From a virus: 51,337 bases of DNA. Below are positions 10,368 through 51,337 of this stretch, piece by piece. The notes under the pieces are model-generated. The model made no database searches. It was not told the origin of the DNA and worked only from the letters and a program-made list of their open reading frames with translations. The stretch lies in the IMG/VR virus record IMGVR_UViG_3300036846_000218, positions 1-51,337 of that record, one strand, 5' to 3'. Each line of letters starts with the position of its first letter. The first letter of the stretch is position 1. A program made the translations under genes and the position numbers.

Positions 10368-10376
10368 GAGAAACCC

Positions 10377-14458: not shown

Positions 14459-15446
14459 TGCCCCACCAAAGAAACAGGAGAACACCCTTCTCACTGCTTT
14501 GCAGTTTGTCGCAAGGGTACAACCTAAGCGGAGCACTGTCGCTGCTTTTAGCCATGTTAGGTTGTTTGGCGGCAGGGTATCTGCTACTGGTCCTATACTA
14601 TCAGCTTCAATAGCAATTCAAGAGGACATTGAGTGTTGCCCCGACACTCAGAAATTCATTCAAGCGTTGAAGCAATGTCCAGATGCGGTGAGCCTCACCC
14701 TTCTACCTACAAAGGAACTCTCAATTAAATCTGGCAACTTTCAAGCTGCCGTTCCCTGCATCGATCAAGCCAACATCCCGGCCATTGCGCCCGACCAAAG
14801 ACAAGCGGACGTGGAAGTTTACTTTCAGCAAGCACTAGAGCGGGTAGGGGAAATTTCAAACGAACGTTCTAAATTAATTATCTATTCAAGCGTTGTCATG
14901 CTCTCCGGGTCCGTCATCGCAACCAACGGCGAAGTCATCATGGAGTGTTGGCACGGCTGCACAACCCCAAAAGATTTGATCGTGCCTAAGCTGTTCATCT
15001 CAGCCCTCAAACGGACGCGAGGTAAAACGCTTTACTCGCTCGGATGGTCCCTCGATACCCTTACGGCCTACTACCCCGATGGATCATGGCTTAAAACCCG
15101 TCTGCCGATTGATCCCGACATACCGAAATTGCAGGAATTTCTAGGCATCCCGTCCACCCCCACACCCGCCCCCTTGGGGTTGTGGGCAGCGGTAGACCGG
15201 CTTGCGCCCTTCTCTCAAGACGGACGCATTTACTTTAGAGAAGAGGGCGTCTGTACGGACCAATACAAAACGGATGGTGCAATCAACTTGTGCGAAGGAT
15301 TACCAACCGGTCTATCCTTCCCCATTGCCGCTCTCCAACTCATTGCACAATTCACCGATACACTCGCGTTCAACGTCACGGAGAAAATGACGTTCTTCTT
15401 TGGTCCAAACATTCGTGGTGCTATCGCACAGAGGTTGGAATCATGA
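14430..15446 (+). CDS. DNA polymerase sliding clamp (beta-clamp, DnaN-like)
   Basis: 338 aa. By-eye alignment to E. coli DnaN landmarks: LSIKSGNFQAAVPCIDQANIPAI vs LVRSGRSRFSLSTLPAADFPNL; VIATNGEVIMEC vs TVATDGHRLAVC; LIVPKLFISALKR vs VIVPRKGVIELMR. Confidence 0.65.
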   Translation: MPRKKQSSNDAPPKKQENTLLTALQFVARVQPKRSTVAAFSHVRLFGGRVSATGPILSASIAIQEDIECCPDTQKFIQALKQCPDAVSLTLLPTKELSIKSGNFQAAVPCIDQANIPAIAPDQRQADVEVYFQQALERVGEISNERSKLIIYSSVVMLSGSVIATNGEVIMECWHGCTTPKDLIVPKLFISALKRTRGKTLYSLGWSLDTLTAYYPDGSWLKTRLPIDPDIPKLQEFLGIPSTPTPAPLGLWAAVDRLAPFSQDGRIYFREEGVCTDQYKTDGAINLCEGLPTGLSFPIAALQLIAQFTDTLAFNVTEKMTFFFGPNIRGAIAQRLES

Positions 15447-29978: not shown

Positions 29979-30995
29979 CTACGAGATACCGTCAAGGTAG
30001 TAGAAAGACTGATTCCTTTTGAATTGCGGTTGTCCGATGCAGCCATTGAACAACGTTTCGTAGGAACCGCCATCTTTCACGCTTGGAACGGTAAATACCT
30101 TTTGCGGTGGTTGCGGAGCATGAAGCAAGACGTTGTTCTCATCATTGCGATAGAAACATGCTCTGCCCACACCACCAGTGCCGATGGTGCTGATCCACGG
30201 ATTAGCAACCGGCTTGAACTTGAAGTCAACACCGTTCGCTCTGGCAATGTTGTTCGCTTCGATGTAGCGCCCAACACTCTCAAATCCGCCAACCCCGCCC
30301 AACACCATTGGAGAGAAGAGACTATTGAACGCGCCATAATCAATCAAGCATGTATCGGGGAAAGCATCAGCAGCGTACACGGCTTGTCCGACTGCTTGAG
30401 TCAAAGCGAAATTCACATCAGATTGAATTTCAGATGGTGCCTTACGGGACCAATTGCGCGAAGTGGCGGCAGCATTCATCGGCGCAAGAGAGTTAGTCAC
30501 AACTGGATTGTTCAACAACCCCGGATCACCCATCCAACCGTTGTATGTGACCACTTCCATTGCTTTATTCCAAACCAGCGTCACACCGTCCTCAAGTAGA
30601 GTCTGCAAGCTAAATGGAGCGGGTTGACCGCTTCGTGCCGCTGTTTCGAGTTTCTTCAAATCAATGACTGTAATCAGGAATCCAACTTGCCACAGCCACG
30701 TATGCCAAACACCCTTGACCACGTTCACTTGGATCATTGGCACGTCTGTATTGTTGGTACCTTGTAACCCGTACTGATTCGTGCCGGTGGACGCATAGTC
30801 AGATGCATAGGCAGTCAAGTAATCAGGCATACCCCCGCCAAATTTAACTGAGATATCGCGGGGATGCGTCATGCTTGACAACGGTTTGACAAGCGTTGGC
30901 GTAACAAGTTCAAGTTGAGCACTTAAAAACGCCAAAGATGAAGATGTTGCGGCATCGAAAGCATATGGTCCGTTGGTGCCACTCTTTTTGAACAT
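29979..30995 (-). CDS. Major capsid protein (HK97-fold, DUF2184-like)
   Basis: 338 aa. AFLSAQLELVTPTLVKPL...PRDISVKFGGG fits the DUF2184 pattern as I recall it. It sits after the scaffold gene. Confidence 0.7.
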   Translation of the reverse strand: MFKKSGTNGPYAFDAATSSSLAFLSAQLELVTPTLVKPLSSMTHPRDISVKFGGGMPDYLTAYASDYASTGTNQYGLQGTNNTDVPMIQVNVVKGVWHTWLWQVGFLITVIDLKKLETAARSGQPAPFSLQTLLEDGVTLVWNKAMEVVTYNGWMGDPGLLNNPVVTNSLAPMNAAATSRNWSRKAPSEIQSDVNFALTQAVGQAVYAADAFPDTCLIDYGAFNSLFSPMVLGGVGGFESVGRYIEANNIARANGVDFKFKPVANPWISTIGTGGVGRACFYRNDENNVLLHAPQPPQKVFTVPSVKDGGSYETLFNGCIGQPQFKRNQSFYYLDGIS

Positions 30996-35856: not shown

Positions 35857-37119
35857 TTAATTACTTTCCATTGGCAGTGTTATGCGCCAATTTGGAACCT
35901 TCGTGTTGACGAAGTATCTAAGAGCATCGGGCGCGTGATCGTGGACTTTCAAAGGAACGTCTTCGCCCTTTTTCTCCTGCTTAGTGTCCCACGCGTAAGT
36001 CTGCAATTCCAACCTAAGCATCCGGCAGCGTCTATGTATTTTGATTTTGCGCTGTGCCAGCAGACTACTTGTCTTACGGATACCATCTTCAACGTTGTTA
36101 TCAGCATCCGTGTGCCAGATGCCGCGCAACGCCATTTCCGCCTTGAATGATGCCGCCGATGGATCAACGACAACCATTGCCCCCTGCGGAGCTACCTTGT
36201 CGCGGAACTCTATCAAGTCCGAAGCGTATTGTCCATCAGTCTTTTGTGCCGCTTCAACTTTCGAGTCCCAGTAATACTCTCGATCTACCCAATAGATTTG
36301 ACCGTCGTCAATGATATGGAGAAACACCATTGGATTTGTTGTGCCGTAATCAAGCGGAATGCACTGCTCTACAAAACCACCGCTATTGCCAAGACTGATA
36401 GGACGCGAAGCATCATCATAATCATTTAATTCTGGTGAATAGGAATCGCGGTATATCGCGCCTTCAGCAACAACCCATTCGCCAAGAATCATGCGCTTGT
36501 GAAACACGCCCCGGTACATCGATTCATAACGCTTGATCGTATCTGCACTAAGACTTGTGTTGTCATGAATGTTGAATTTAATAACCCTCACCAATCCAGA
36601 TTGAAGCTTGTCCACATCCGTTATGTAATCGACATATAACCAGTGGAAGGGATTATCCGGGTTGGTCGTACCGTACAGCCTAGCGCCCTCTGGTGACATG
36701 CGCCCCAACATCATAGTAAAAAACGACTGTGGGGTTAGTACCAACTCGTCACCGTAAGCTAACCCCACCGTCGCACCCCGAATGAATTTCTCTGATCCTT
36801 CATCCTTCGCGCCAACGACACGCCACTTAACACCATCAAGAAAGAAAGCACCAGTTTGTCTGTTGTAGCTGTAATGTCCTGCTCCAACAAACTCACACAA
36901 ATCGTTCAGCACATTATTCCAAATCGTCTCTTTTGTAACGCCAAAAAAGATGCGCTCTCCTGCTACCGGATAACGATTCAACTCCCCGGCTATCTTTGGA
37001 ATCATCGTCCATGTCTTGCTTGAACGTATCGGTCCCTCAAGGATGTTTATGAATGCATCCTCTGCCGGGTTACGCAATATGAAGTCTGTTGACTTCTTTG
37101 AAAACGGTTTGAAGTTCAA
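35857..37119 (-). CDS. terL: Terminase large subunit (PBSX-type)
   Basis: 420 aa. The N-terminal Walker A variant is ILEGPIRSSKTW. A C-terminal nuclease region contains VVVDPSAASF. Confidence 0.85.
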   Translation of the reverse strand: MNFKPFSKKSTDFILRNPAEDAFINILEGPIRSSKTWTMIPKIAGELNRYPVAGERIFFGVTKETIWNNVLNDLCEFVGAGHYSYNRQTGAFFLDGVKWRVVGAKDEGSEKFIRGATVGLAYGDELVLTPQSFFTMMLGRMSPEGARLYGTTNPDNPFHWLYVDYITDVDKLQSGLVRVIKFNIHDNTSLSADTIKRYESMYRGVFHKRMILGEWVVAEGAIYRDSYSPELNDYDDASRPISLGNSGGFVEQCIPLDYGTTNPMVFLHIIDDGQIYWVDREYYWDSKVEAAQKTDGQYASDLIEFRDKVAPQGAMVVVDPSAASFKAEMALRGIWHTDADNNVEDGIRKTSSLLAQRKIKIHRRCRMLRLELQTYAWDTKQEKKGEDVPLKVHDHAPDALRYFVNTKVPNWRITLPMESN

Positions 37120-37890: not shown

Positions 37891-38430
37891 CTACTGAACA
37901 CGATAGACTCGCGCACCAGTGGTTGTTTCCACCGCACCGTTGGGGTACGTGTCGCCAGCAGTAACCCGGCGAAGACGAAACACCTTGCCTTCGTCCTTGT
38001 ACCGGCGAGTTGCACTGGTAACGGTGCTACCAAACGACACCCACGGTTCAGCCTTCTCTTTGGAAGCGGGAATCACGAAACTTTGCCCAACTTCCATGAA
38101 TTTGAATGGGTACTGTTCGCCCTTGACTCCCCGCTTAGTTTGCATCGGGAAATCGTTAAACAACGGATGATTTGCAAGAATTGTTTCTCTCTCAAGCATC
38201 GCTGCCGCTCCATTGGGTTTTGGTGCCGGGTTGTCGTTGAAATGAACAGCGATCATCGTACCTTGCCGTAGTTCTTCGGCAAACTCGATATGATCTGGGT
38301 CATTTTCCTTCAGTGCAATCAAATCAGCATCGGATTCTTCCAACATCAGGTACCGGGGTTCCTCTTGCGCTTCCGATGCTTCTTTGATTCTCGCCAACAA
38401 CGCTTTCTGATTCTTGTTCAACTTTGCCAT
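37891..38430 (-). CDS. Hypothetical protein
   Basis: The start is at MAKLNKNQ, with GGGGAGAG about 8 nt upstream. 179 aa with an acidic N-terminal half. Confidence 0.55.
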   Translation of the reverse strand: MAKLNKNQKALLARIKEASEAQEEPRYLMLEESDADLIALKENDPDHIEFAEELRQGTMIAVHFNDNPAPKPNGAAAMLERETILANHPLFNDFPMQTKRGVKGEQYPFKFMEVGQSFVIPASKEKAEPWVSFGSTVTSATRRYKDEGKVFRLRRVTAGDTYPNGAVETTTGARVYRVQ

Positions 38431-38480
38431 CTTTTGCACTCTCCCCTGTAGGAATTCTAGTCCTGCAAGGAACAACGATA

Positions 38481-38753
38481 CTAATATTTTTTGTGTTCAG
38501 CAAGTAAAAGTTCTCTAATCTTCGCAATCCTGTCTTCACATTGTTGACAATTCGGTTGACAAGAATAAACCGGCTTGATAGAGCGAATGAAACCATTCTT
38601 TTGCGTAACATGAACCTCTAAAACGTTGCCGCAACTAGATTTAAACTTGCGAACAACCATCGTTGTAGAAGCGTTTTCTGTTCCGCGACTACATGAAAAA
38701 GCAGTCACCAACCCTTTAGGTAGAAACGGGATATCGCTCTGGACTGGCATCAT
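38481..38753 (-). CDS. Small Cys-rich protein (start uncertain)
   Basis: The ORF overlaps the 3-prime end of the VRR-NUC gene. It contains CSRG...SCGN...CQPNCQQC. Confidence 0.35.
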   Translation of the reverse strand: MMPVQSDIPFLPKGLVTAFSCSRGTENASTTMVVRKFKSSCGNVLEVHVTQKNGFIRSIKPVYSCQPNCQQCEDRIAKIRELLLAEHKKY

Positions 38754-39162
38754 GGCATGTTTTACATTCATCAGGATCACCCTCAAGATATTGAACGATG
38801 TATTCCCTTGCGGTCTGCCAGTGGTAGCAGACCACAGCCGCGTATCCCATCGTCCTCAATGCTTGAAGCCAATCCTGTTGATTTGCTGTTGGCTTGTTTT
38901 TGCCAATCTTTAATTCAATAAATAGCCCATGCTTGCCCCATCTGGCAACCGGTAGCATTACATCCGGCACACCAGACCGTACCCCGGCAGCTTTCATGAA
39001 TCCAGCTTCAACGCGATTTCTGGTGCCGCCATTCGGAACGGCGAACATGTAATTTAGCTCCGGGTACTGATACGTTGTCAATGCCGCCCATGCAAATAGT
39101 GCCGTCTGGTGTGCCTGTTCCGAACCCGATTTTGCTAAGTCATCCGGTGTAGGACCGCTCAT
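38716..39162 (-). CDS. VRR-NUC domain nuclease
   Basis: 148 aa. GVPDVMLPV...GLFIELKIGKNKPTANQQDWLQAL shows a PD...ExK core followed by the Q..W pattern typical of VRR-NUC. Confidence 0.75.
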   Translation of the reverse strand: MSGPTPDDLAKSGSEQAHQTALFAWAALTTYQYPELNYMFAVPNGGTRNRVEAGFMKAAGVRSGVPDVMLPVARWGKHGLFIELKIGKNKPTANQQDWLQALRTMGYAAVVCYHWQTAREYIVQYLEGDPDECKTCHDASPERYPVST

Positions 39163-39241
39163 GAATTCACCCCAAAAAGAGCATTCCCCGTCGCATTAAA
39201 GCAACGGGGAATGTCTCACCAACGCAAATCTGATTTTGCCA

Positions 39242-39430
39242 TCATTTCCAATGCACTTCTGGTCTTTTGACTATGGTCGTTGTTTCCGTCGTTTGGTTCG
39301 TTGTTTTCTCTAGCAAGTTGTGGTCGTTAACAATAGTGGTAGCATGTGCGGCATCAGTTGCAGTCGCCACCCATTTGCCGTTGTCATCTTGTACGGCAAC
39401 GTTAGAGCAAATGTTAATTACAGCCCACAA
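39242..39430 (-). CDS. Hypothetical protein
   Basis: 62 aa. TTG start with GGAGG 9 nt upstream. Confidence 0.45.
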   Translation of the reverse strand: MWAVINICSNVAVQDDNGKWVATATDAAHATTIVNDHNLLEKTTNQTTETTTIVKRPEVHWK

Positions 39431-39712
39431 GGATTTTTACCTCCATTTCCCCCTTGCGGGAATTATTCAATTGAGAACGAATAGTACGCTCGTAATGCAG
39501 CGAAAGCAAGTTGAATCGTTACAAAAGTTCACAATGTTGTAAACCATTGTTAATTCAACAGTTGCTTAATTTCCTCCCACTTTTCCACAAGCAAGACACC
39601 CATACAGTTGCAAACATGAAATCATGAACAACCCATTGCCTAACGGTTTGACGCCATAATGACGTCATAGTAGAACAACGCCTTTGTGGATGTACTATAG
39701 CCAGTTACCACT

Positions 39713-39748
39713 CTGTACAAGCCTGTACAAGCCTGTACAAGCCTGTAC
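39713..39748. repeat. Tandem decamer array (CTGTACAAGC)x3 plus a partial fourth copy
   Basis: Perfect copies at 39713, 39723 and 39733, with CTGTAC at 39743. TGTACTA also occurs at 39691 and 39744. Each unit contains the palindrome TGTACA. Confidence 0.95.
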
Positions 39749-39758
39749 TAACTTTGTG

Positions 39759-39956
39759 TTAGTTTATCCGGCGAATGGGGATGGTACGTTCATCCAGAAA
39801 CCTATCAATGTCCTTGCGCCTGATCTTGCGAAAGTGACCGATCTTGACGCTAGGAATCTCCCGATTGTAGACCCATCTCCACAGCGAATCCACTTTCATA
39901 CCTAACAACATTGCAGCTTCGGGAACACTATACAATTCCTGTTCGATAGGACACAT
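39759..39956 (-). CDS. xis: Excisionase-family / MerR-type helix-turn-helix DNA-binding protein
   Basis: 65 aa from the ATG at 39956. YSVPEAAMLLGMKVDSLWRWVYNREIPSVKIGHFRKIRRKDIDRFL is the classic Xis-type HTH pattern. Confidence 0.7.
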   Translation of the reverse strand: MCPIEQELYSVPEAAMLLGMKVDSLWRWVYNREIPSVKIGHFRKIRRKDIDRFLDERTIPIRRIN

Positions 39957-40492
39957 TGTTTTCAACCTCGCACTGGCGGAAGCCCCGCCTAGAAAAACGC
40001 AATCCAGACCTTAGCGGTAGTTTGCTTTGGGGTCAAGAAAAAAAAAATCGAAACGGTCCCGATGCCCGAATCACTAGACCACATGTAGACCACGGAGGAA
40101 TCAGAGTCCCGAAAAAGTCCCGAACTCTGCAACTTCAAAACACTCAACTACCGTTTAATCAACGGTTTAACCTACTGGGTTACTCTGATGCCCCATCATA
40201 CTACGCGTGATTTTGTAGTACCCATGTAGTAGGGGTGTAAACACCCGGTAGTGCAGGGTTAAACCACATGCCTTCATACCCTTACAACCTAGTGATCACC
40301 ACTCGTTCACATATATTCTAGCCTTCCAAAAAAGTCAACTCCAAAGTTTTCCAAATCCAAGTCCCAAAAAATTTGGGAGTTTTTGGTTATAGTGATCTTC
40401 GATATAACGATCTTCGATAGAGCGAGCATGAGCGGTACCCCCATAGGGTACGAAAAGCAAATATCGTTGCACGAATGCAACGCTTTGAACAT

Positions 40493-40551
40493 GAAAAACG
40501 GGGTGCTCTCCCAGTGGCAATTAGACAGATTCCCTCTGGAGTAGCACCCCG
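40493..40551 (-). terminator. Rho-independent terminator after 40576..41205
   Basis: The - strand reads CGGGGTGCTACTCCAG, a loop, CTGGGAGAGCACCCCG, then TTTTTCATG. Confidence 0.65.
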
Positions 40552-40575
40552 CTTTCAGCAACACCCGGTGGAGTG

Positions 40576-41205
40576 CTACTGAACTTGTACCGGTCGTGGT
40601 GGTGGTGGCGGCAGCGGCGGCAACTTCGATTCCGGTACACCAGCTTTTCTCGCCACTGATCGAGCAACATAAAATCGCTGCTTTGCTAAATAAGCATCTG
40701 ATTTTTTCTTGCTACCCGGTGTCAATGTTCTCAGCATTGGTTTGCCATTCTTAATTGCAACCTTTGCCCGTTTCTTCATGATTGCCGAACGCTGTTCAGG
40801 AGTGAATTGCATCCAATATTTCTTGCTTGCACTCAATTCAACTTTTGGCGGACGACCTAAGCGTTTTCCGGCAGCGGTTACTTTTCCCTGATATGTTTTC
40901 TCCCTACGCTCCGCATGGTTGCCGGTGCCGCTTCGTGGTGACGCATGGTCGTGTGAATGCTCAACCATTTCCAACGCTGCCACGGCTGTACCCCTGTCGG
41001 TGGTAGCGCCCCGCAAAAGTGGCACTTCACCCTCAGCCCCGCGTGACCCCAAGGGGTAAAGTAGTTCCCCAATCCGCGAGGCGATAAAGCCGAACGGGGT
41101 ACCAGTTGCAAGGCAGATTGACTCGATTTCTCGCTCGATTCGCCCGTAGAGACGGGCAACGTCCGTGTCGCTGATAGTGCCATTCTGAAATCCTCTCTTG
41201 ACCAT
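40576..41205 (-). CDS. Basic protein of unknown function (candidate DNA-binding regulator)
   Basis: The start is at MVKRGF, with AAGGAAA upstream. 209 aa. The C-terminal half is Lys/Arg-rich with GRPPK and a PPLPPPPPRP tail. Confidence 0.55.
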   Translation of the reverse strand: MVKRGFQNGTISDTDVARLYGRIEREIESICLATGTPFGFIASRIGELLYPLGSRGAEGEVPLLRGATTDRGTAVAALEMVEHSHDHASPRSGTGNHAERREKTYQGKVTAAGKRLGRPPKVELSASKKYWMQFTPEQRSAIMKKRAKVAIKNGKPMLRTLTPGSKKKSDAYLAKQRFYVARSVARKAGVPESKLPPLPPPPPRPVQVQ

Positions 41206-41340
41206 CGTTGTTTCCTTCGTGTCTAGGTTAAGGCAAAAACCCCTAGAACAGCCGTCTAGGGGTCGTTTGCCGGGTTGGGTGGGGGTTTTCCACACCCCCG
41301 ATGCCTACAAGAGCTACAGCAGCCCTCTATGGCGCATTGG

Positions 41341-41574
41341 CTACTGCTTTTTTACCTTTACCGGTCCGCCTGTTCTCTCTTCCAAAACGGAAATTCTGCC
41401 TTCATGATCGATCATGTACTGAACCAGCAAATCAACCTGTTTGGAAATTGAATCAAGTCTACCGTTAACACCGTCGATCTTGCCATCAATCTTGGCATTG
41501 ATATACAGAATCAGAATTGCCGTCTGTCCTGTAAACAATCCCGCAATTGCAAAGAACAATTGAGCGTTTGTCAC
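41341..41574 (-). CDS. Small TM + coiled-coil protein (paralog 2 of 5)
   Basis: 77 aa. MTNAQLFFAIAGLFTGQTAILILYI is followed by KIDGKIDGVNGRLDSISKQVD. Confidence 0.7.
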   Translation of the reverse strand: MTNAQLFFAIAGLFTGQTAILILYINAKIDGKIDGVNGRLDSISKQVDLLVQYMIDHEGRISVLEERTGGPVKVKKQ

Positions 41575-41595
41575 TTCGCTTAGTTCCTCCGCTTT

Positions 41596-41784
41596 TCATT
41601 TCTGCTTCAGCGTTGCAATGTCTGCTTCGTGCCGCCCTAGATCGTGGTAGAACCGTCGCAAGTCCGCTTCAATCACAATCAAACGAGAGTTGAGCGAATT
41701 AAAACCGTGCATCATGAATCCCATAACAACAGCGATTTCAGCACTAACCACCCCAAGGATGGTAAACATTTGAGTCGTTGTCAT
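41596..41784 (-). CDS. Small TM + coiled-coil protein (paralog 3 of 5)
   Basis: 62 aa. MTTTQMFTILGVVSAEIAVVMGFMM is followed by a helical, charged tail. Confidence 0.7.
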   Translation of the reverse strand: MTTTQMFTILGVVSAEIAVVMGFMMHGFNSLNSRLIVIEADLRRFYHDLGRHEADIATLKQK

Positions 41785-41933
41785 TCTTTCTCCTTTGTTA
41801 AGCGATCTAGCTTCAAACCCACCGCTTTGATTTCATCGGCCAAACGATCAATGTGATTGGATAAGTACAATAACCTTAACCACTCAGAACCGAAAATTGC
41901 AACGATTAAAACGGTCAGTTGAATATTCGGCAT
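41781..41933 (-). CDS. Small TM + coiled-coil protein (paralog 4 of 5; below the ORF-track cutoff)
   Basis: 50 aa: MPNIQLTVLIVAIFGSEWLRLLYLSNHIDRLADEIKAVGLKLDRLTKEKE. Its stop overlaps the next ATG (ATGA at 41781-41784). Confidence 0.55.
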   Translation of the reverse strand: MPNIQLTVLIVAIFGSEWLRLLYLSNHIDRLADEIKAVGLKLDRLTKEKE

Positions 41934-41954
41934 GTCGTTTTGTTTCCTCCCCAC

Positions 41955-42218
41955 TCATACCTTTTTGTTTTCCTTGACCAAAGACACAGTAATCTCATCT
42001 GTAGCCTCATCAGCTACGGTCAGCATGAAGTCAAGCGCGTTTTCAACATTGTTGCGTTGGTCGGGTGTGAGCTTATCTAAGTACACCCACATTACGCGAA
42101 TGTGATTACCGTTGGTTACGCTAATCCTGATCTTGGCGCTTTCAGTCATGATACGCAGTTTTTCGAATTGTGCGTCGTACCCTTTTTGCGCTTCTTTCAT
42201 ACTTTTCAGGAAATTCAT
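41955..42218 (-). CDS. Hypothetical protein
   Basis: 87 aa, downstream of the integrase in the same orientation. Confidence 0.55.
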   Translation of the reverse strand: MNFLKSMKEAQKGYDAQFEKLRIMTESAKIRISVTNGNHIRVMWVYLDKLTPDQRNNVENALDFMLTVADEATDEITVSLVKENKKV

Positions 42219-42453
42219 TCATTCTCCTATCCATACAGCGTTTTCAAAGTCAACTTTTACAATTGCATTTGTATTCAGGAAACCTGCCCATGAAAATTAT
42301 GATTACCGGTCGTAAAGCAGCGTAAGACATAGCATCAGCCCCGTACAACAGCGTTTGCAAAGTGCTTAAGAAAGTCACCGGGACGTGTAGGCTCACCGTG
42401 CAAGACACCGTACACCCAATCAACAATGTCCGGTGCATCCGTGCTTAGGTTTT

Positions 42454-43596
42454 TCATTGAATCGGTCCCTTAACAGTGTTAAACATTTCTTTCCAGCCTT
42501 CAAACGCTTTCTCAACTACGCGAATACGATCTTCTCTGAATGAGTGCAAATAAACATCCATCATCTTGTCGTTAACGTGACCCATCATCGCCTTGATATC
42601 AGCCTTCGTTGCGTGTTTGCCAATCATGGTGCCAAACGTGTGTCTAAGATCGTGCCAACGACATTCAATGCCAGCAGCTTTCTTTGCGCCCTTCCAAACA
42701 CCAAAACTTTTTGTTGGAATAGTGGGCAGCGTTTTGTAAATGCCATAACCCCCGCCCTTGACGTGACCGTACCGTTGCGATGGAAACACGTAATGATCAG
42801 GCTTCGCTTCGGGAAACTTCGATTTCCATTCCAGCAATACTTCTACCGCATCCAACATTGGAATGAAACGTTCCCCTGCTCTTGTCTTCGTGGTTTTCCG
42901 TTGCACAAGAAACTGACGATTTTCAAAATCAACAGACTTCCACTGCAAGTTGAGCAATTCCTTCCGGCGTACACCGGAGAGCACCGAAACCTGTATAGCG
43001 GTTTGAAACGCTTCTGAACGCGATTCACCGGCAATCTTAAACAACATCAGAAGTTCCCTTTTGGACAACGGCTTACCCATTGTTTCCTCTTCGGAGAACA
43101 TATGAAAGGTGCTGCCTTCTTTCAGCCGGTTCCACAGCTTATGCTCAACAAACAATTGCCGAACGGAAGTCAACTCGATGTTGATTGTGCGATCAGCCGG
43201 GGGTTTACCGAACTGCGTGACTTGCGTCTTGCGGTGATTCTGGTACCGCCGCAAGTCTTTGCCGTTAATATCCGTAATCAGCATCTCACCAAAAAACTCA
43301 ATTAAATGCGGCATTGATGTGCGGTGCATGATATAGGTCTTGCCCTTGTCACCACCCCAACCAGCTTTATTCAATTCAACAAATTCTTCCAACGCAAATC
43401 TAAATAGCTTCGGTGAACGCGAAGCTGGAACCATATCATTGCCGCCCCGAATGAGAGACGTGTAAAGGTTATTTAATACCTCTTGAGCAACATACTTCAC
43501 TTTGGTTTTGGTACTCTGCGCATATCGGATACCCTGAAACTGAAATTCATAGTGCCAGTACCCATTTTTGTGTTGTTTCAACCTAGGCATTGCCAT
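42454..43596 (-). CDS. int: Tyrosine integrase (site-specific recombinase)
   Basis: 380 aa. Catalytic landmarks are LSGVRRKELLNL (Arg), RWHDLRHTFGT (H-x-x-R) and MMDVYLH (Tyr). Confidence 0.85.
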   Translation of the reverse strand: MAMPRLKQHKNGYWHYEFQFQGIRYAQSTKTKVKYVAQEVLNNLYTSLIRGGNDMVPASRSPKLFRFALEEFVELNKAGWGGDKGKTYIMHRTSMPHLIEFFGEMLITDINGKDLRRYQNHRKTQVTQFGKPPADRTINIELTSVRQLFVEHKLWNRLKEGSTFHMFSEEETMGKPLSKRELLMLFKIAGESRSEAFQTAIQVSVLSGVRRKELLNLQWKSVDFENRQFLVQRKTTKTRAGERFIPMLDAVEVLLEWKSKFPEAKPDHYVFPSQRYGHVKGGGYGIYKTLPTIPTKSFGVWKGAKKAAGIECRWHDLRHTFGTMIGKHATKADIKAMMGHVNDKMMDVYLHSFREDRIRVVEKAFEGWKEMFNTVKGPIQ

Positions 43597-43885
43597 CGAT
43601 TAACTCTCTCACTTTCCTCTGAATTACGGTAATCGCATTACAAATTGAATTAGTAGCAGCAATTATGGCGTTAAGTTGAATAGTGCTTTCTGCTGTTAAA
43701 GCCCTAACCTCAAGTTCCTTAACGCCAATATCCTTATACAACAAAGACGTGTAAACCTGATCCAAAATTCGTTGAGCGTCATGCTTCACTTTGGTTCTGG
43801 TGCTTTTGCGGTACGGTACACCTTTGTACTCGAAAGCGTAAAACCAGTATCCGTTTTCATGCTGATGCAACTTCGGCATTGCCAT
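43583..43885 (-). CDS. Stand-alone paralog of the integrase N-terminal domain + coiled-coil tail
   Basis: 100 aa. MAMPKLHQHENGYWFYAFEYKGVPYRKSTRTKVKHDAQRILDQVYTSL vs the integrase MAMPRLKQHKNGYWHYEFQFQGIRYAQSTKTKVKYVAQEVLNNLYTSL gives 28 of 48 identical residues by eye. Its 3-prime end overlaps the int start by 14 nt. Confidence 0.7.
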   Translation of the reverse strand: MAMPKLHQHENGYWFYAFEYKGVPYRKSTRTKVKHDAQRILDQVYTSLLYKDIGVKELEVRALTAESTIQLNAIIAATNSICNAITVIQRKVRELIDGNA

Positions 43886-43891
43886 TTTTGC

Positions 43892-44071
43892 TTAGTATCC
43901 CTTCGGGAATTTTAGTTGAATATTGCAGCTACGGCAGAAACACATTTTCGCGTTCTGCTCACCAATTTCAGTCACCATCCAAAACAACGACCCGCCCGGT
44001 GACGGTATCTCCACACCGCAAACAGGACATTGCAGTTCAACCGATACAATCGTTACCACTGCTGTTTTCAT
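43892..44071 (-). CDS. Small zinc-ribbon protein
   Basis: 59 aa from MKTAVV. Contains CPVCG...CRSC. Confidence 0.5.
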   Translation of the reverse strand: MKTAVVTIVSVELQCPVCGVEIPSPGGSLFWMVTEIGEQNAKMCFCRSCNIQLKFPKGY

Positions 44072-44169
44072 CAATGCCCCGCCCTTCTGCCTACAAAGAC
44101 TACGCGCAAGACTGACCCGGCAATGAAAATCCAAACGAGAATGTTCCCTAGTAGTTCACCCATTTTTGA

Positions 44170-44373
44170 TTACCCTTTAACCAGCGTTATTTTGCTGTCG
44201 ATTTTTGATTCAAGCGTGTCAAAACGTTGATTCATTTGTTTAGCCATTTCATCGAACTGTCGGTTCATTCTCCCTTCAAGACCGTCGATTTTCTTGTCGA
44301 TACCATCAAACTGCCGGTAGAGCATTGCCAAGAATGCCCCGCCTAACAACGCCAAAAGAATGTTAGTTACCAT
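44170..44373 (-). CDS. Small TM + coiled-coil protein (paralog 5 of 5)
   Basis: 67 aa. MVTNILLALLGGAFLAMLY is followed by GIDKKIDGLEGRMNRQFDEMAKQMNQRFDTLESKID. Confidence 0.65.
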   Translation of the reverse strand: MVTNILLALLGGAFLAMLYRQFDGIDKKIDGLEGRMNRQFDEMAKQMNQRFDTLESKIDSKITLVKG

Positions 44374-44442
44374 GTTTCAATCCTTTCCCTCTTTTCTGAC
44401 ATGCTCTGATTATACTCCCGAACAGCGTTATGTACAGCGTTT

Positions 44443-44616
44443 TCAGTTCAATTTTTTAGAAAGTTCCTCCGCTCGTTTGCCTACAGAAACTAGCTTGCAC
44501 TCCCGCTCAAGTATGTCCAGCGTTCTGGCGTAGCCGATTTCTTCAATTAATTCTGCAACAAGGGTTGCCAGCTTCAATTGCAGCTTTAGGTCTGGTGGTT
44601 GACTTAATTTGGTCAT
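44443..44616 (-). CDS. Hypothetical 57-aa protein (below the ORF-track cutoff)
   Basis: ATGA overlap with the upstream gene. Product is MTKLSQPPDLKLQLKLATLVAELIEEIGYARTLDILERECKLVSVGKRAEELSKKLN. Confidence 0.45.
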   Translation of the reverse strand: MTKLSQPPDLKLQLKLATLVAELIEEIGYARTLDILERECKLVSVGKRAEELSKKLN

Positions 44617-44909
44617 TCTTTACCACCCTGCATCTTGCCATCTTTGATTATGTGCATTGGCGGGAAATAGGCGCGATTGCGCTTCTCTGGTCGTTTCTGC
44701 GCTTTCTTAATTAAGGAATCCAACAGTTCAGGCGAGAGATTTTCAGCGTTAGCAATCAGTTGTCCGCCTAACCATTCAGCATCCGGTGTGTACGATATCA
44801 AGACCACACCGTTAGGACTCTTGGCATAGACCCCGGCTTTCAACTCTTCAAGGTTCTCCGGTTCCAAAATGATCATGTGTTGCCCGTCCCTAGTGTTAAA
44901 GTAAATCAT
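44613..44909 (-). CDS. Hypothetical protein
   Basis: 98-aa ORF in a co-oriented small-gene array. Confidence 0.55.
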   Translation of the reverse strand: MIYFNTRDGQHMIILEPENLEELKAGVYAKSPNGVVLISYTPDAEWLGGQLIANAENLSPELLDSLIKKAQKRPEKRNRAYFPPMHIIKDGKMQGGKE

Positions 44910-44921
44910 TGTTCACATCCC

Positions 44922-45056
44922 TCATTTCTTCTTTCGTTTGCCGGGACCATGTTTCAATCCAGCCATCATTTTTGCTTGATTTCCACCTTGTTTCAGCGTT
45001 TTTTCGTTCTTCTTAAGAATTTTTTCTGACCACATCGACGGTCCATTCTTTCTCAT
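44922..45056 (-). CDS. Possible 44-aa basic peptide
   Basis: MRKNGPSMWSEKILKKNEKTLKQGGNQAKMMAGLKHGPGKRKKK fills the gap between two genes. No clear SD. Confidence 0.3.
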   Translation of the reverse strand: MRKNGPSMWSEKILKKNEKTLKQGGNQAKMMAGLKHGPGKRKKK

Positions 45057-45058
45057 CT

Positions 45059-45298
45059 TTATGCCTCTTTGATTCGTGAAAGAGTCAGCACTTTGTCATC
45101 GTCAGACACAGCCATTGCTAGCGCCCCTTTTTCAGCAGCCTTAAATAGATCAGCAACAGAGATTCTAAGAATTCCCCCGGCATCATCGATTAACTTCAAG
45201 AGGGCGGCATTGATCATGACCCGGCACTCTTCTTCGGACCATTGACGGCTAGAGGCATTAACAAACGTGGTCATCTTTTTATCTGGCATTGTTTTCAC
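45059..45298 (-). CDS. Hypothetical protein
   Basis: 79-aa ORF overlapping the upstream stop. Confidence 0.55.
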   Translation of the reverse strand: MKTMPDKKMTTFVNASSRQWSEEECRVMINAALLKLIDDAGGILRISVADLFKAAEKGALAMAVSDDDKVLTLSRIKEA

Positions 45299-45471
45299 CC
45301 CGCATCAAACAGTCGAATATACTTGCCACACTTGGCGCAATGAATGTCACCATCGTGGAAAGTCTCTGAATAGTTGCGCAGTTCAAATTCAGTTGATCCA
45401 CATTCACAGGTAGTGTTGTTGAGAGTGAATGAGGAATCCTTAATTTCGTTTCCGAAAACGTCCGTGTTCAT
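45295..45471 (-). CDS. Small zinc-ribbon protein
   Basis: 58 aa from MNTDVFG, with AAGGATGG upstream. Contains CECGS...CAKCG. Confidence 0.5.
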   Translation of the reverse strand: MNTDVFGNEIKDSSFTLNNTTCECGSTEFELRNYSETFHDGDIHCAKCGKYIRLFDAG

Positions 45472-45556
45472 TTTGTCACCATCCTTGATTTTGTTTCGTG
45501 AAGGCGCTAGACGTGAGTTGCGAAGCAACGAACGTTGATAGCCTGAACTTGTGGAG

Positions 45557-45766
45557 TTACCATCCTTGATCCTCGATTACTTTCTTGATTACAACCTCAT
45601 CGTCAACGATTGAGCAGTTAGCATAGAACTTATCCACGAATTCAAAGAATTGCCGATAGTGATTATTAAACGGCAGAGTGGTGGTGAACGTCCTGTTTTC
45701 GTTGTAGACAAGTATTGGCGGATTGTCTTCAGAAGATGCTAGCGGTTTCTGAAACTTCAGGATCAT
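45557..45766 (-). CDS. Hypothetical protein
   Basis: 69 aa with AGGAGAAA upstream of the ATG. Confidence 0.55.
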   Translation of the reverse strand: MILKFQKPLASSEDNPPILVYNENRTFTTTLPFNNHYRQFFEFVDKFYANCSIVDDEVVIKKVIEDQGW

Positions 45767-46430
45767 GCGCTTTCTCCTGTTGATCTATGGAGTGAAAGGG
45801 TAGCGAAGCACCCGAAGGGGGCGAAGCGGACCTTGAACTGTCTGCATGTGTAATCTGAACTGAGGCAGAGATTCTTAACTTAATCTGCTCTCTGGGATGA
45901 ATTCGGGCGAATTGAGCAGCGGTAAGCTTTAGATGGGAGAGGATACGTTGCAAGGGTTGAGTGATCGAACCTTTGCTGTGGTAGACCTTGCGGGATGTGT
46001 TGCGGTTTCGTGAAGGGGAAGCGTTAAGGGATGCGGAGCATCCCTTATCCGTACCCTGAACTGATGATGATAGCAGCATCTTCACCTTATCTAATTGAGT
46101 CTGAACTAAAGCGGCATTATCAAATTGATTGTTGTCCATGTAGGAAAGCAATTGGTTGTTGAGAGATTGCGCTTGGGCGACAAGAGCTAACTTCTCTTCC
46201 GGATACAGAAGCTTGGCATCGGGACAATACCAAACCCACCAGCCGGTGAGTGAGCGGTGGAATTTGAGATTGGTATTGTAGCGGCGATTGTAGTTGGAAA
46301 CCATGTTGCGAAAGTTGGTTGGATTGAGAGTAGAGGTTACATGTGGTGGGATGATGAAGTAGCCGTTGGGAGAAAGAGTCTCCATCTGCAATTTGATCCA
46401 CGGTGGGTAGCGGCTTGGACGTTTAGTCAT
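45729..46430 (-). CDS. Hypothetical protein
   Basis: 233-aa ORF with a Ser-rich C-terminal half. No motif was recognised. Confidence 0.5.
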   Translation of the reverse strand: MTKRPSRYPPWIKLQMETLSPNGYFIIPPHVTSTLNPTNFRNMVSNYNRRYNTNLKFHRSLTGWWVWYCPDAKLLYPEEKLALVAQAQSLNNQLLSYMDNNQFDNAALVQTQLDKVKMLLSSSVQGTDKGCSASLNASPSRNRNTSRKVYHSKGSITQPLQRILSHLKLTAAQFARIHPREQIKLRISASVQITHADSSRSASPPSGASLPFHSIDQQEKAHDPEVSETASIF

Positions 46431-46507
46431 TTTTAGTGCCTACAAGAATTGAAGTGAAGGGGTAGTGTGTTGAGGACCGAAGGTCCGAAACACCGAACCC
46501 TGAACTA

Positions 46508-46684
46508 TTACCCTGAACTGATTTTTGAAATTGATCCACCCTTGCTTATAACCCACGCTTTGAACTTGTGAAAGGGTGCGCCAATGAATTTGTGAAAGAC
46601 TGGTGCAGCCTCAGTGATCAAATCAGCGTTCGTTACAACGGCAGCAGTGATGTTTTTTAGTTGTATTTGATAAACCGTAGTCAT
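46508..46684 (-). CDS. Hypothetical 58-aa protein (below the ORF-track cutoff)
   Basis: ATGA overlap with 46681..47172. Product is MTTVYQIQLKNITAAVVTNADLITEAAPVFHKFIGAPFHKFKAWVISKGGSISKISSG. Confidence 0.4.
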   Translation of the reverse strand: MTTVYQIQLKNITAAVVTNADLITEAAPVFHKFIGAPFHKFKAWVISKGGSISKISSG

Positions 46685-47172
46685 TTGAACCTTTCAGGCG
46701 GATTGGTCCTGATCCCTTCAACCGTCAATTCATGCCCTTCAACGGCAGCTTGAACAGACGTGTAGCGGCAAACAACAGTGTAGTTAGAATCGGTGGGACC
46801 GAACACCATTGTTTCCCAAAGGAAAGGAATAGGGGAAAATGGGTTAGCGTCGATACCTAGAAACACAGTTGAGACTTCAATCTCGCCAAGTAGTGAAGTA
46901 AGAAACGTTTTCAACACTGTTCGATCAGTTGTGGCGTACCACTCAGCCCAACGAAAAATGTCCCGGCAGGGAACAGGGGTGTTGGTGGATGGGTCTAGGA
47001 TGTAGGTTCCAATCCACGGTAAGAAATTAAGGTTGCCTACAGGGATTCCCTCGAAATCAAGTAAGTGTTCTAAAGACGAATCGTGATCCTCAATTGAAAT
47101 GTTCTCGATGGGTGGAGTAGGAGTATTGTGGTTAGGGTTTTCACAATCATCGTTCCAGTCGTTTTCAGCCAT
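46681..47172 (-). CDS. Hypothetical protein, first gene of the - strand accessory array
   Basis: 163 aa with GGAGGA 7 nt upstream. The N-terminus is acidic. WETMVFG resembles a recurrent phage pattern. Confidence 0.6.
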   Translation of the reverse strand: MAENDWNDDCENPNHNTPTPPIENISIEDHDSSLEHLLDFEGIPVGNLNFLPWIGTYILDPSTNTPVPCRDIFRWAEWYATTDRTVLKTFLTSLLGEIEVSTVFLGIDANPFSPIPFLWETMVFGPTDSNYTVVCRYTSVQAAVEGHELTVEGIRTNPPERFK

Positions 47173-47451
47173 GTTGTGATCCTCCGGGGATTTCGGGGTG
47201 GTCGCGCAGATGGTACCTTTTTTTTATGGTGCTAGGATAGGTTTTTTTTTATGTAGTTGAGAGTAGGGGAGTTATACCGGGGATTTTGTACGTGCCTCCG
47301 CGCGGCGGCGGCTAACCCCCCTATTTTCAATGGGATACGTAAGCATATGAAAACAAAGGACTTGCGCCTCGCATTGAGAACAAAGGACTTAGGTAAACCA
47401 TTGATTCGATTAGGGATAGCGTAAAGTGTTGATTCCATTGGGGAATGGTCA

Positions 47452-47469
47452 TAGTTAATTGAATCTAAA
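47452..47469. repeat. 18-bp direct repeat TAGTTAATTGAATCTAAA, copy 1
   Basis: Identical to 47611-47628. It is flanked by the inverted pair TGATTCCATTGG (47430-47441) and CCAATGGAATCA (47520-47531). Confidence 0.9.
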
Positions 47470-47610
47470 TGGGTTCGGACAGGGGAAACCCGAATAAATC
47501 CCGGTATACATGCATAACTCCAATGGAATCAATAGAGATAATCTGATCACCTAACAGACGTTCGCTTCTCCTTCGTTATTGGTTCGCTTTCTCATCTTCG
47601 GGGCACATTT

Positions 47611-47628
47611 TAGTTAATTGAATCTAAA
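47611..47628. repeat. 18-bp direct repeat TAGTTAATTGAATCTAAA, copy 2
   Basis: Identical to 47452-47469 and 159 bp downstream of it. Confidence 0.9.
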
Positions 47629-47721
47629 GCAACTTGTCCAAATAGCCCCGTCCGCCCGGTATGGTGACAATCCATTCTCCACCATACGCCAAAAAGAAGG
47701 TTAAATCCAATGTAATCAATA

Positions 47722-47760
47722 ATATATATATATATGTAGTAGTAGTATAGTAGATAGATG
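47722..47760. repeat. AT-rich simple-sequence tract (AT)7 followed by GTA/GATA repeats
   Basis: ATATATATATATAT GTAGTAGTAGTATAGTAGATAGATG, with GTATATATAGAATAT 11 nt further on. Confidence 0.9.
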
Positions 47761-47978
47761 GAGAGTCTTTGTATATATAGAATATCGTCATACCTGCCAT
47801 ACATACACTTGTAACCCATAGATTAAAAAAGCGTTCGACTGAAAATGCCGTAGGGTAACAGCCATACGACAGGTCACCCTACGGCTAATGTGCTTTGGAA
47901 AGGGTTCAAGGTACACTTCGTGTCGCTTCGCTCCACTTCGTTTCCCTTTCACTTCATAGGCTAGACTTTGTAGGCAAC

Positions 47979-48054
47979 CAACAACGTCCAGCGCAACAAC
48001 CAACAACGTCCAGAACGTCCGCTCGGTCCGAACCCATAACGCAACAACGTCCAG
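47979..48054. repeat. Three copies of the 13-mer CAACAACGTCCAG (iteron-like)
   Basis: Copies at 47979-47991, 48001-48013 and 48042-48054. GTCCAGCGC follows the first and third copies. Confidence 0.9.
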
Positions 48055-48178
48055 AGTCCAGCGCAAAGTTAATTGAGAATGATCACCCTAGTTTGAAAAC
48101 GTTTTTTGTATGCAATTCAATTGCCAATCTATAGTCACGCTACATCGTCAATTAGTAATCGCCTAATGGTCATACCCT

Positions 48179-48242
48179 AAAATGTAACACGTCAAATTGA
48201 GAAATCGCCAATATCCATGCACCTTTCAGAGTGTTACATTTT
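48179..48242. repeat. 12-bp perfect inverted repeat AAAATGTAACAC / GTGTTACATTTT with a 40-nt spacer
   Basis: Arms at 48179-48190 and 48231-48242. A direct repeat ATCGCCA-N11-GCACCTTT occurs at 48204-48226 and at 48253-48275 (N10 spacing). Confidence 0.9.
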
Positions 48243-48535
48243 GTGATCACGAATCGCCAGTGTTTACGCACCTTTAACGTATACTCTGAAACACTCCGGC
48301 AATCAACAGCTTACACACAAATACAGCTACTTTAGCATATGCCCATTGCTAGCGTTTCTAGACGCGTAGCGCGTTCGATGGGGAAAAGTGGCACCCTACC
48401 CTGTCCAACGTCTATCGAACGCACCTCCAGAGTCCGAAAATAAAGTTGAAACATATCTAACTAGTTGTGCTATGTATGGATTGTAGGCAATTTGACGCAT
48501 TGTTACATTTGCACGTTGAAAACGACCCCAAACGT

Positions 48536-48579
48536 AGCGTAGAAATAGCGAAGTAAAAGCGTAATGAAAGCGAAGTAGT
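48536..48579. repeat. Four 11-bp-phased AGCG(A/T)A repeats
   Basis: AGCGTAGAAAT AGCGAAGTAAA AGCGTAATGAA AGCGAAGTAGT, with AGCG at 48536, 48547, 48558 and 48569. AGCGAAGTA also occurs at 49124. Confidence 0.9.
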
Positions 48580-48634
48580 CCATTGCCCAATTCCCCTATA
48601 TAGATACGCTCTTATATTTAGTTAGAAATCGTTG

Positions 48635-48664
48635 TTGCTTTCCTTAATTGAAAACGTCTATATT
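48635..48664 (+). promoter_or_regulatory. Candidate sigma70-like promoter of the + strand early-type operon
   Basis: TTGCTT (48635-48640), an 18-nt spacer, then TATATT (48659-48664), 20 nt upstream of the ATG at 48685. It overlaps the shared box TGAAAACGTCTAT. Confidence 0.4.
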
Positions 48665-48684
48665 GTGAGTGGGAGAAATACCGA

Positions 48685-48861
48685 ATGAAACAGTTCAAAG
48701 TATGGTTGAACGACAATCGCGGGAATAACAGAGAAATGATTGTCCGTGCATCATCCCGGTCCGCCGCAATGCTGATAGGCGAATCAACTTTTTATACGTG
48801 GTTTGCTGTAGACGCATGGGAAGAAACAGAAACGCCACTATTGGACTCACTGTCCAACTAG
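48685..48861 (+). CDS. Hypothetical 58-aa protein (below the ORF-track cutoff)
   Basis: GGGAGA lies 8 nt upstream. Product is MKQFKVWLNDNRGNNREMIVRASSRSAAMLIGESTFYTWFAVDAWEETETPLLDSLSN. Confidence 0.55.
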   Translation: MKQFKVWLNDNRGNNREMIVRASSRSAAMLIGESTFYTWFAVDAWEETETPLLDSLSN

Positions 48862-48862
48862 G

Positions 48863-48900
48863 CACAACACACAACACACAACACAACACACAACACACAA
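48863..48900. repeat. CA-rich microsatellite (CACACAA/CACAA units) in an intergenic leader
   Basis: CACAACACACAACACACAACACAACACACAACACACAA lies immediately before the SD and ATG of 48910. A related tract CAACCAACAACACACAACACATAACC is at 49133-49158. Confidence 0.9.
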
Positions 48901-48909
48901 GGGAAAACA

Positions 48910-51149: not shown

Positions 51150-51337
51150 CAATTGCGATGGTTCGGGACCGCACACAAGCGGAACTGTCAAGTTGCTTCC
51201 GACCGGTACCACTAACACAGATGGCAACTTGATTCTTTGTCAAGCTTGCTTCAACCACGAATTGCAGTGGAGAGCAAAGCGAAACATTGAAATCGGTCGG
51301 GACGTTTTCAAGTTGCCAGTATGGGAAGAATTGAAAG
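51139..51337 (+). CDS. 5-prime part of a junction-spanning 69-aa Cys-containing protein (continues at 128-138)
   Basis: MQNNNCDGSGPHTSGTVKLLPTGTTNTDGNLILCQACFNHELQW... runs off the window end inside the terminal repeat. The stop codon is found at 136-138. Confidence 0.6.
   Translation, partial: MQNNNCDGSGPHTSGTVKLLPTGTTNTDGNLILCQACFNHELQWRAKRNIEIGRDVFKLPVWEELK
51211..51337. repeat. Terminal direct repeat, copy 2 (identical to 1-127)
   Basis: Same 127-bp string as the window start, compared by eye block by block. Confidence 0.95.

Follow-up and report, generated by a model that had tools for sequence, protein, structure and literature searches.

The 51,337-nucleotide virus sequence IMGVR_UViG_3300036846_000218 of IMG/VR, whose full length is called the window in the following, encodes five small proteins belonging to a family of single-pass membrane proteins of 50-110 residues; that the window copies are five diverged paralogues of this family is well supported. 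Likewise well supported by the sequence comparisons is the conclusion that the family is real and without a name in any library, and as judged at this level it belongs to no described holin, spanin or defence family. Its members are common to uncultured phages and Acidobacteriota-type chromosomes, the latter carrying single copies, and the family is not phage-specific. With a probability of roughly 0.35 the phage copies are host-derived adaptors or mimics, anchored in the membrane and built on a coiled coil, which act early or in the lysogen.

All five open reading frames (ORFs) listed in an earlier interpretation of the bare letters (the sequence-only reading) were found, each on the minus strand, and are labelled A to E here; P and L numbers denote family relatives and their loci. 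A (41341-41574, 77 amino acids (aa)) starts with GTG and has a GGAGG 9 nt upstream. The start codon of B (41596-41784, 62 aa) overlaps the stop codon of C (41781-41933, 50 aa), the shortest and most divergent copy, in a genuine ATGA. D (44170-44373, 67 aa) lies upstream of the integrase block and E (1077-1340, 87 aa) is the final gene of a leftward primase operon. Ribosome-binding sites of the GGAGG/AAGGAG type precede C, B and A, and Shine-Dalgarno sites were also found for D and E. The sequence GGGGAGGAAA is located upstream of ATG 41933 of C, for which a GTG at 41954 is the alternative start, and GGGGGA upstream of ATG 1340 of E; since these purine-rich sites stand at the expected distance, C probably starts at 41933 and E at 1340. 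The gene call of the Joint Genome Institute (JGI) opens E at Met10 and thereby drops the conserved N-terminus. An exact terminal direct repeat of 127 bp (window 1-127 and 51211-51337) and a second contig (L006) bridging both window ends indicate that the window covers the whole of a circular genome of about 51.2 kb, and all five copies therefore belong to a single phage, which is a myovirus-like temperate phage.

The similarity of the five copies exceeds what chance would produce, as both shuffled controls and an external profile demonstrate. Seven of the ten pairwise local alignments lie above whole-sequence as well as segment-preserving shuffles with z>4, which upholds the similarity that the sequence-only reading had presumed; the alignments B-C, B-D and C-E are not above both shuffles at this level. 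For the external profile only 49 homologues from outside the window were used in order to avoid circularity, and it was run on the window ORFs no shorter than 35 aa, of which there are 453. It ranked the five copies on top (E-values of 1e-29 for A, 2e-19 for E, 1e-10 for B, 5e-5 for D and 0.03 for C), the sixth-ranked ORF scores 1.2, and no sixth family member was found in the window. An external profile of the B type recovered B with 2e-15. By sequence the membership of C is marginal; it is supported by an orthologue in the related locus L010, which also has 50 aa, is 73% identical and overlaps an A-like gene. The ratio of nonsynonymous to synonymous substitution rates (dN/dS) against the L010 orthologue is 0.22 for A and 0.74, across 49 codons, for C, which suggests that C is weakly constrained and evolves near neutrality. 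For E the synonymous sites are saturated, and the tip NFNNQVTTLLTTIHGVDVR is nearly unchanged from phages of 47-59% GC to chromosomes of 63% GC.

In searches of sequence databases with single copies, E retrieved 13 homologues and A 16, or 17 in one count (E-values down to 2e-29), all of them metagenomic and 60-90 aa long, and hhalign matches the A type with the E type along the entire profiles (probability 91%, E=1e-6). When a joint profile was run by HMMER exhaustively through 1.84 billion representatives, 123 clusters (counted at 50% identity) were obtained at E<=1e-3, including 30 at E<=1e-10; nearly all of them comprise 55-110 aa and align from residue 1. Relatives of the B type (P0093, P0096, P0184, P0207, P0212 and P0216) share the pattern ..LIVIEGDLRRFYxLLGEHSGKI.., and bridging sequences connect the types, P0071 joining B with C and P0086 joining repeats of the D type with a tip of the B type. 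Among 50,697 GenBank phage records no family member was detected by tblastn of A and E at E<=1, and single-protein scans of IMG/VR with B and D gave no matches, not even to the window contig, which the scanned set thus does not contain. One relative, P0181, is a 155-aa call that carries the label 'N-acetylmuramoyl-L-alanine amidase' in the source database (JGI). The sequence gives no support to this label: the real part of P0181 is a 67-aa member of the E type, and its Arg/Gln-rich N-terminal extension looks like a wrong-frame or over-extended call.

Members of the family begin with the consensus M-[TS]-x-x-Q-L-F-F, in which Q5 is nearly invariant and which runs straight into the membrane helix; the N-terminal peptides MSTTQLFF, MTNAQLFF and MTTTQMFT had been quoted correctly before. 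The common architecture proposed for the five ORFs, a hydrophobic N-terminal helix followed by a charged heptad helix, was borne out by the external profile and by hydropathy, the best N-terminal Kyte-Doolittle mean over 19 residues being 1.7-2.0 in all five proteins. The hydrophobic segment of C is the weakest because E17 and R20 lie inside it. In 53 of 54 members no Lys or Arg occurs ahead of the membrane helix, while the 15 residues behind the helix contain 3.1 on average, and by the positive-inside rule this charge bias predicts an N-out/C-in orientation. A 3.5-residue hydrophobic periodicity of the tail is significant in A (p=0.0005), D (p=0.0005) and E (p=0.013), and not significant in the short tails of B and C. 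A displays the complete layout with the uncharged MTNAQLFF, the membrane helix, five unbroken heptads from I29 to L64 and the tip QVDLLVQYMIDHEGRISVLEERT; the tail of B reads RLIVIEADLRRFYHDLGRHEADIATLKQK and the tip of E ENFNNQVTTLLTTIHGVDVRLVKLE. D combines the membrane helix with (K/R)xhD heptad repeats and lacks the HEGRI..LEER tip. Cysteine is missing from all five proteins. AlphaFold2 (AF2) predicted two helices only, with a predicted local distance difference test score (pLDDT) of 60 from 15 sequences and 68 from 60 sequences; in A the helices span residues 3-29 and 37-68 (pLDDT 68). A Foldseek comparison of the predicted monomer, as suggested by the sequence-only reading, gave no match in BFVD or PDB.

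The stalk consists of a continuous heptad helix of (K/R)-h-D-x units, and between I29 and L64 of A the hydrophobic residues keep to a 4-3-4-3 spacing throughout. For 55 members of the A type the length of the stalk was measurable as the number of residues separating (D/N)AK, a conserved motif behind the membrane helix, from the tip's HEG. The spacing is 19 residues in 24 of them, and longer stalks add 4, 7, 11, 14, 15, 18, 21, 22, 26, 29, 33, 36 or 44 residues. Additions of 2, 5, 9, 12, 16 or 20 residues were seen in none of the 55 members, a pattern that arises in part from duplication of 4-, 7- and 11-residue units in related sequences and is not to be read as a formal probability. As the extra residues correspond to whole helical turns, the rotational phase between membrane helix and tip is kept while the length varies. 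This quantised length is strong structural evidence for a rod-like stalk.

Conservation in the family is highest in the tip helix, which most members possess and which has the pattern LLVQYMxxHEGRIxxLEERT in the A type and NFNNQVTTLLTTIHGVDVRxVKLEE in the E type. Moreover, soluble proteins of about 63-67 aa (MT[VN]AELQK..) were found which have no membrane helix and consist of the tip only (L010 4842-5192 and L008 3058-3261). They end with ..LLxIAQSHExRIxRLEG and share operons with membrane-anchored members in related phages. From the occurrence of soluble tip-only proteins in the same operons we infer that the tip is a functional module.

The chromosomal members stand in ordinary surroundings. 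A single copy is located between the genes of an NHL-repeat protein and a GH20 hexosaminidase both in a Bryobacterales metagenome-assembled genome and on a 104-kb contig (L019/L013), another beside squalene/phytoene-synthase genes on a 4.0-Mb contig (L027), a third in a carotenoid-like cluster on a 257-kb contig (L028) and a fourth beside FeoAB and DUF3738 on a 225-kb contig (L032). Directly 3' of the chromosomal E-type gene of L028, at about 10330-10520, units of about 18 nt (..GGAATGACGGACGTTTCT..) are repeated in tandem.

Phage genomes carry one to five copies, often in tandem and with frequent start/stop overlaps with their neighbours. Within the window D, the tyrosine integrase (42454-43596, minus strand; PF00589, 5.5e-22) and the trio C-B-A belong to a single long leftward gene string, the trio lying about 0.5 kb downstream of the integrase on the same strand. 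The tandem adjacency to the integrase described by the sequence-only reading is thus real; the lysogeny module in which it placed the trio is not a discrete cassette, since the leftward string continues into the packaging genes. Both arrangements of the window recur in the related IMG/VR phage UViG_3300036791_000069 (loci L005, L010 and L014): L005 and L014 present the order primase, two-membrane-helix protein of 77 aa and E-like gene, and L010 the order integrase, C-like and A-like genes with an ATGA-type overlap, a gene for a 193-aa protein, HTH_17 and VRR-NUC. In further phages an E-like gene is placed between the genes of an RHH protein and an AAA_23 SbcC-like ATPase (L002, L015 and L016, the last with an additional tandem B-like copy), and L008 shows the succession ParA, A-like gene, 78-aa ORF and AAA_23. 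An A-like gene follows RusA in L007, A-like and B-like genes follow a serine recombinase in L012, and two copies flank a 59-aa zinc-ribbon ORF on the 33% GC contig L026. A copy of the B type is situated after the SSB block in L029-L031, a phage present on 23 contigs. Two to three copies occur in five other contigs; five, as in the window, is the highest count seen, and the expansion that the sequence-only reading had called unusual is no singular event. The recurrence of multiple and tandem copies in related phages points to a habit of the family and not to an oddity of the window genome. Domain scans of the neighbours confirmed that no endolysin stands beside any copy in the window, and no lysin adjoins a copy in about 13 related phage contexts.

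In both related phages a protein of 77-84 aa with two membrane helices (84 aa at window 1377-1631, minus strand; L005 4787-5020) invariably separates the primase from the E-type gene. It is not a member of the family, has no match in Pfam, PHROGs, NCBIfam or PADLOC, and may be a partner of E. In L007 a second A-like copy at 4697-4885 (minus strand) is truncated, frameshifted and on the opposite strand, and the ends of this contig carry pairs of DUF1643 and a 726-aa gene in inverted orientation; L007 may represent an inverted duplication or an assembly artefact.

The reading we favour at the above probability draws on the homology, the charge bias and the rod-like stalk as well as on the conserved tip, its soluble tip-only relatives, the chromosomal copies, and the early or DNA-metabolism contexts in phages. 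According to this proposal the proteins would insert N-out/C-in into the cytoplasmic membrane and oligomerise by means of the coiled coil, whereupon the conserved tip would be presented beneath the membrane at a fixed distance and rotational phase as a binding module. The tip would bind a conserved putative partner, either the host's own family member or the binding partner of the latter. The phage copies, co-translated with early, replication/recombination and integrase-proximal genes, would thereby re-programme a process at the host's inner membrane, and the diverged paralogues would supply different stalk lengths, different tips or hetero-oligomers. It is conceivable, if rather doubtful, that the phage copies specifically mimic a conserved inner-membrane micro-protein of Acidobacteriota and switch a host membrane process by coiled-coil pairing with this protein or its partner, the stalk with its growth by whole helical turns setting how far from the membrane they pair. 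Envelope-stress signalling, division and transport would be candidate processes in that case, and the paralogues might cover different host alleles or stages such as lysogeny and early infection.

Several points weigh against the adaptor proposal. The partner of the tip is only putative, and the N-out/C-in topology is based on the positive-inside rule alone. The AF2 monomers are of low confidence (pLDDT 60-68) and show a helix broken at residues 30-36. Adjacency to DNA-metabolism genes is weak evidence because phage early regions consist mostly of such genes. As D has no tip and C is marginal and weakly constrained, the five proteins may differ in role. Remnants of mobile elements could account for the chromosomal copies, since orthologues of 75% identity are differently placed (L028 versus L032). 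Finally, the GC content of the window phage is 47.5% as against 62-64% in the chromosomal loci.

Other explanations draw in part on the same observations. The trio and D flank the integrase, C-like and A-like genes come after the integrase in L010 as do A-like and B-like genes after the recombinase in L012, and the diversification of the paralogues together with the dN/dS of C would suit genes in an arms race. Such features fit prophage-expressed morons which either block DNA entry (superinfection exclusion) or kill infected cells (abortive infection), a role that the sequence-only reading had raised and that we regard as possible, if doubtful. A sigma-70-like element (TGTACA-N16-TATAAT, 44409..44436, minus strand) in the 70-nt gap preceding D and a terminator-like hairpin with a 10-bp stem and a T-run about 80 nt past the stop codon of A (41238..41264, minus strand) speak in the same direction; both are tentative, and as terminator-like sites in the region are not in excess of shuffles and promoter-like sites are below the shuffle count, these elements and a D-to-A 'operon' are only suggestive. 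Neither a PADLOC match nor, for most copies, an isolated moron cassette was found: E closes the primase operon, most other family members are translationally coupled in early or replication operons, and the tip shows a degree of conservation between distant phages and chromosomes that is unusual and not typical of exclusion genes. Rather unlikely is a set of holins and antiholins of the BhlA/TpeE (TatA-like) kind with a single membrane helix. Here the short oligomerising helix with its N-proximal polar Gln and the cytoplasmic amphipathic helix would time lysis by making the membrane thinner or perforating it, and the paralogues would constitute holin/antiholin pairs. Size and architecture match BhlA/TpeE and TatA (PMC9527704), Q5 is nearly invariant, E adjoins a protein with two membrane helices, one of 54 relatives matches XhlA at 2.3e-5, and scans of about 45 window ORFs with Pfam or PHROGs revealed no lysin, holin or spanin domain, leaving the genome without a recognisable endolysin. 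The holin label was nevertheless not sustained by the comparisons: no member matches PF10960 or another holin model in Pfam, PHROGs or NCBIfam, no lysin accompanies the genes, and these sit in early, replication or integrase strings. A most conserved part that is soluble, with tip-only homologues of its own, and single copies in ordinary chromosomal settings likewise speak against holins.

The position of many loci directly beside primase, ParA, RusA, AAA_23 SbcC-like ATPase or recombinase genes could also be explained by a membrane tether that organises replication, partition or recombination of the phage, by analogy with p16.7 of phi29 (PMC11476376). We consider this improbable, as tails composed entirely of coiled coil leave a DNA-binding domain no space, no p16.7 entry turned up in the profile search against PDB sequences, chromosomal single copies are without DNA-metabolism neighbours, and adjacency in an early region is weakly informative. 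Least probable by far are periplasmic rods of the i-spanin type joining inner and outer membrane at lysis. The N-terminal membrane helix with its coiled coil, a presumed diderm host group and a genome without an annotated spanin would agree with such rods, and the sequence-only reading had pointed to the likeness. The tail of Rz has about 130 aa; those of the five proteins measure 22-57 aa and are predicted by the charge bias to be cytoplasmic. There is no Cys in the five proteins, the ORF lists of the window contain no embedded or adjacent ORF with a lipobox that could encode a lipoprotein partner, no Rz-family match was obtained, and cellular copies occur. On the grounds of predicted orientation, short tails, lack of Cys and lack of a lipoprotein partner ORF the i-spanin interpretation was rejected.

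The genes identified elsewhere in the window include primase (1634-4027), helicase (7655-9247), DNA polymerase (15290-17476), major capsid protein (29979-30995), large terminase (35857-37119) and an HTH_17 excisionase-like gene (39759-39965); baseplate, tube and sheath genes, the portal and VRR-NUC were identified as well. The hairpin at 41238-41264 falls within the 5' extension (window 41205-41295, minus strand) of a 239-aa ORF, for which reason translation of this ORF probably starts inside it, at ATG 41205, and gives 209 aa. The product is similar to the 193-aa protein at the equivalent position of L010 and has no family match. Directly 5' of the integrase start, and overlapping it, a 100-aa ORF (43583-43885, minus strand) was noticed whose residues 1-49 are 57% identical to the N-terminus of the integrase (E=9e-20). 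It is a stand-alone copy of the putative arm-binding domain and may be either a directionality factor or a remnant of duplication. The ORF-poor gap of 610 bp next to the HTH_17 gene (39966-40575) holds AAGTCCCGAA-like repeats in three copies, besides several inverted repeats, and could be attP or a regulatory region; the attP search of this gap returned short repeats only. A second ORF-poor stretch of 1.7 kb (47173-48909) is a divergent region separating the leftward and rightward gene blocks. The whole window, including both ORF-poor stretches, has zero Rfam matches and zero tRNAs, and megablast of 38000-47000 against GenBank phages gave no match. A conserved protein of 52-66 aa with two membrane helices (window 10377-10535, plus strand; L007 16035-16235), which adjoins a tail-fibre-like gene in the window, shows the pattern MIIxLPLLxSIxGxxxYALS..KV..IxLHMFWVGLLxFL. 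It is a class-II-holin-like candidate and not related to the five copies.

In phage genomes, annotation is poorest for small proteins with a single membrane pass, and to our knowledge next to nothing is known about the phages that infect Acidobacteriota, a phylum dominant in soil. If the phage copies mimic a host protein, phage effectors of host origin would gain a new class, and a micro-protein would serve as a natural 'molecular ruler'. If they are holins, the finding would supply the lysis component that is missing from an entire group of uncultured phages without recognisable lysis genes. The family offers concrete constructs for distinguishing between holin, exclusion factor and host mimic.

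Comparison with established families places the five proteins near several of them in architecture and in none of them by sequence. No Pfam, NCBIfam or PHROG threshold was reached by a window protein; the matches below threshold (Baculo_PEP_C, Apolipoprotein, PspB, phrog_5225) are coiled-coil noise, the weak PHROG matches lead to families of unknown function, and the most frequently matched Pfam family was hit by at most three of 54 relatives. A profile search of PDB sequences gave weak coiled-coil matches only, and the defence models of PADLOC-DB were matched neither by the five proteins nor by their neighbour with two membrane helices. A confident match of all members to a characterised holin or spanin family by a Hidden Markov Model (HMM), which the sequence-only reading had named among its refutations, was not among the results.

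BhlA/TpeE holins and TatA have one N-terminal membrane helix and an amphipathic helix in about 8 kDa, and their N-terminus bears no net charge or a single negative one (PMC9527704). The resemblance to BhlA/UviB/TpeE (TCDB 1.E.27), proteins of about 60-90 aa with an N-terminal membrane helix, no positive N-terminus and a charged amphipathic or coiled helix (PMC9527704), holds for the architecture, as the sequence-only reading had remarked, but not for family membership: against PF10960 the five proteins are without a match at E<=1 and none of the 54 relatives matches at E<=0.01. Genes of the BhlA type accompany endolysins or bacteriocins in Firmicutes, whereas the present family has neither neighbour, resides in early or recombinase strings or alone in chromosomes, and possesses a long, regular heptad stalk of variable length with a conserved tip. 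XhlA is the membrane partner of the XhlB holin in PBSX and acts together with it (PMC5589764). The family shares with XhlA small size, membrane association and repeats of the (R/K)-h-D-x-h-E type; none of the five window proteins matches PF10779, only the single relative mentioned above does so, and neighbours encoding XhlB or an amidase were not found. In XhlA the coiled coil comes first and the membrane helix last. All family members have the reverse order.

PspB, a subunit of the envelope-stress sensor, is similar in its length of about 70 aa, its uncharged N-terminal membrane helix and its cytoplasmic leucine-zipper helix. Only D matches it, below threshold in Pfam (PF06667, 21.7 versus 25.6 bits) and NCBIfam (TIGR02976, 17 versus 51.7), residues 3-60 aligning with positions 9-66 of the 73-position PspB model; there are no pspA or pspC neighbours, and the likeness of D may be purely compositional. 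TatA, whose oligomers thin the membrane (a comparison made in PMC9527704), likewise begins with a short membrane helix in N-out orientation, in which a polar residue close to the N-terminal end is conserved, and continues with a cytoplasmic amphipathic helix. Neither the five proteins nor their relatives match the HMM of TatA (PF02416), the FG hinge is missing, and the tail is a canonical coiled coil instead of an amphipathic helix lying on the surface. With i-spanins of the lambda Rz type the family has in common the N-terminal anchor followed by a coiled coil; it differs in its opposite predicted orientation, its short tails, the lack of an o-spanin partner and a location outside a lysis cassette. 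The membrane protein p16.7 of phi29, the organiser of this phage's membrane-associated replication, is comparable in that it is an early product of a gene among those for replication and combines an N-terminal membrane helix with a coiled coil (PMC11476376); the C-terminal DNA-binding domain of p16.7 is missing from the family, whose tails are heptad repeat throughout, and the p16.7 entries 1zae, 2bnk and 2c5r were not retrieved in the profile search of PDB sequences. N-terminal signature, stalk, tip and external profile together mark a family of its own, although D is without the tip and C is marginal. Small bitopic membrane proteins of phages and hosts are a known kind; new is a coherent, unnamed family of 123 clusters with its own sequence signature, stalk lengths in whole helical turns and a distribution over hosts and phages.

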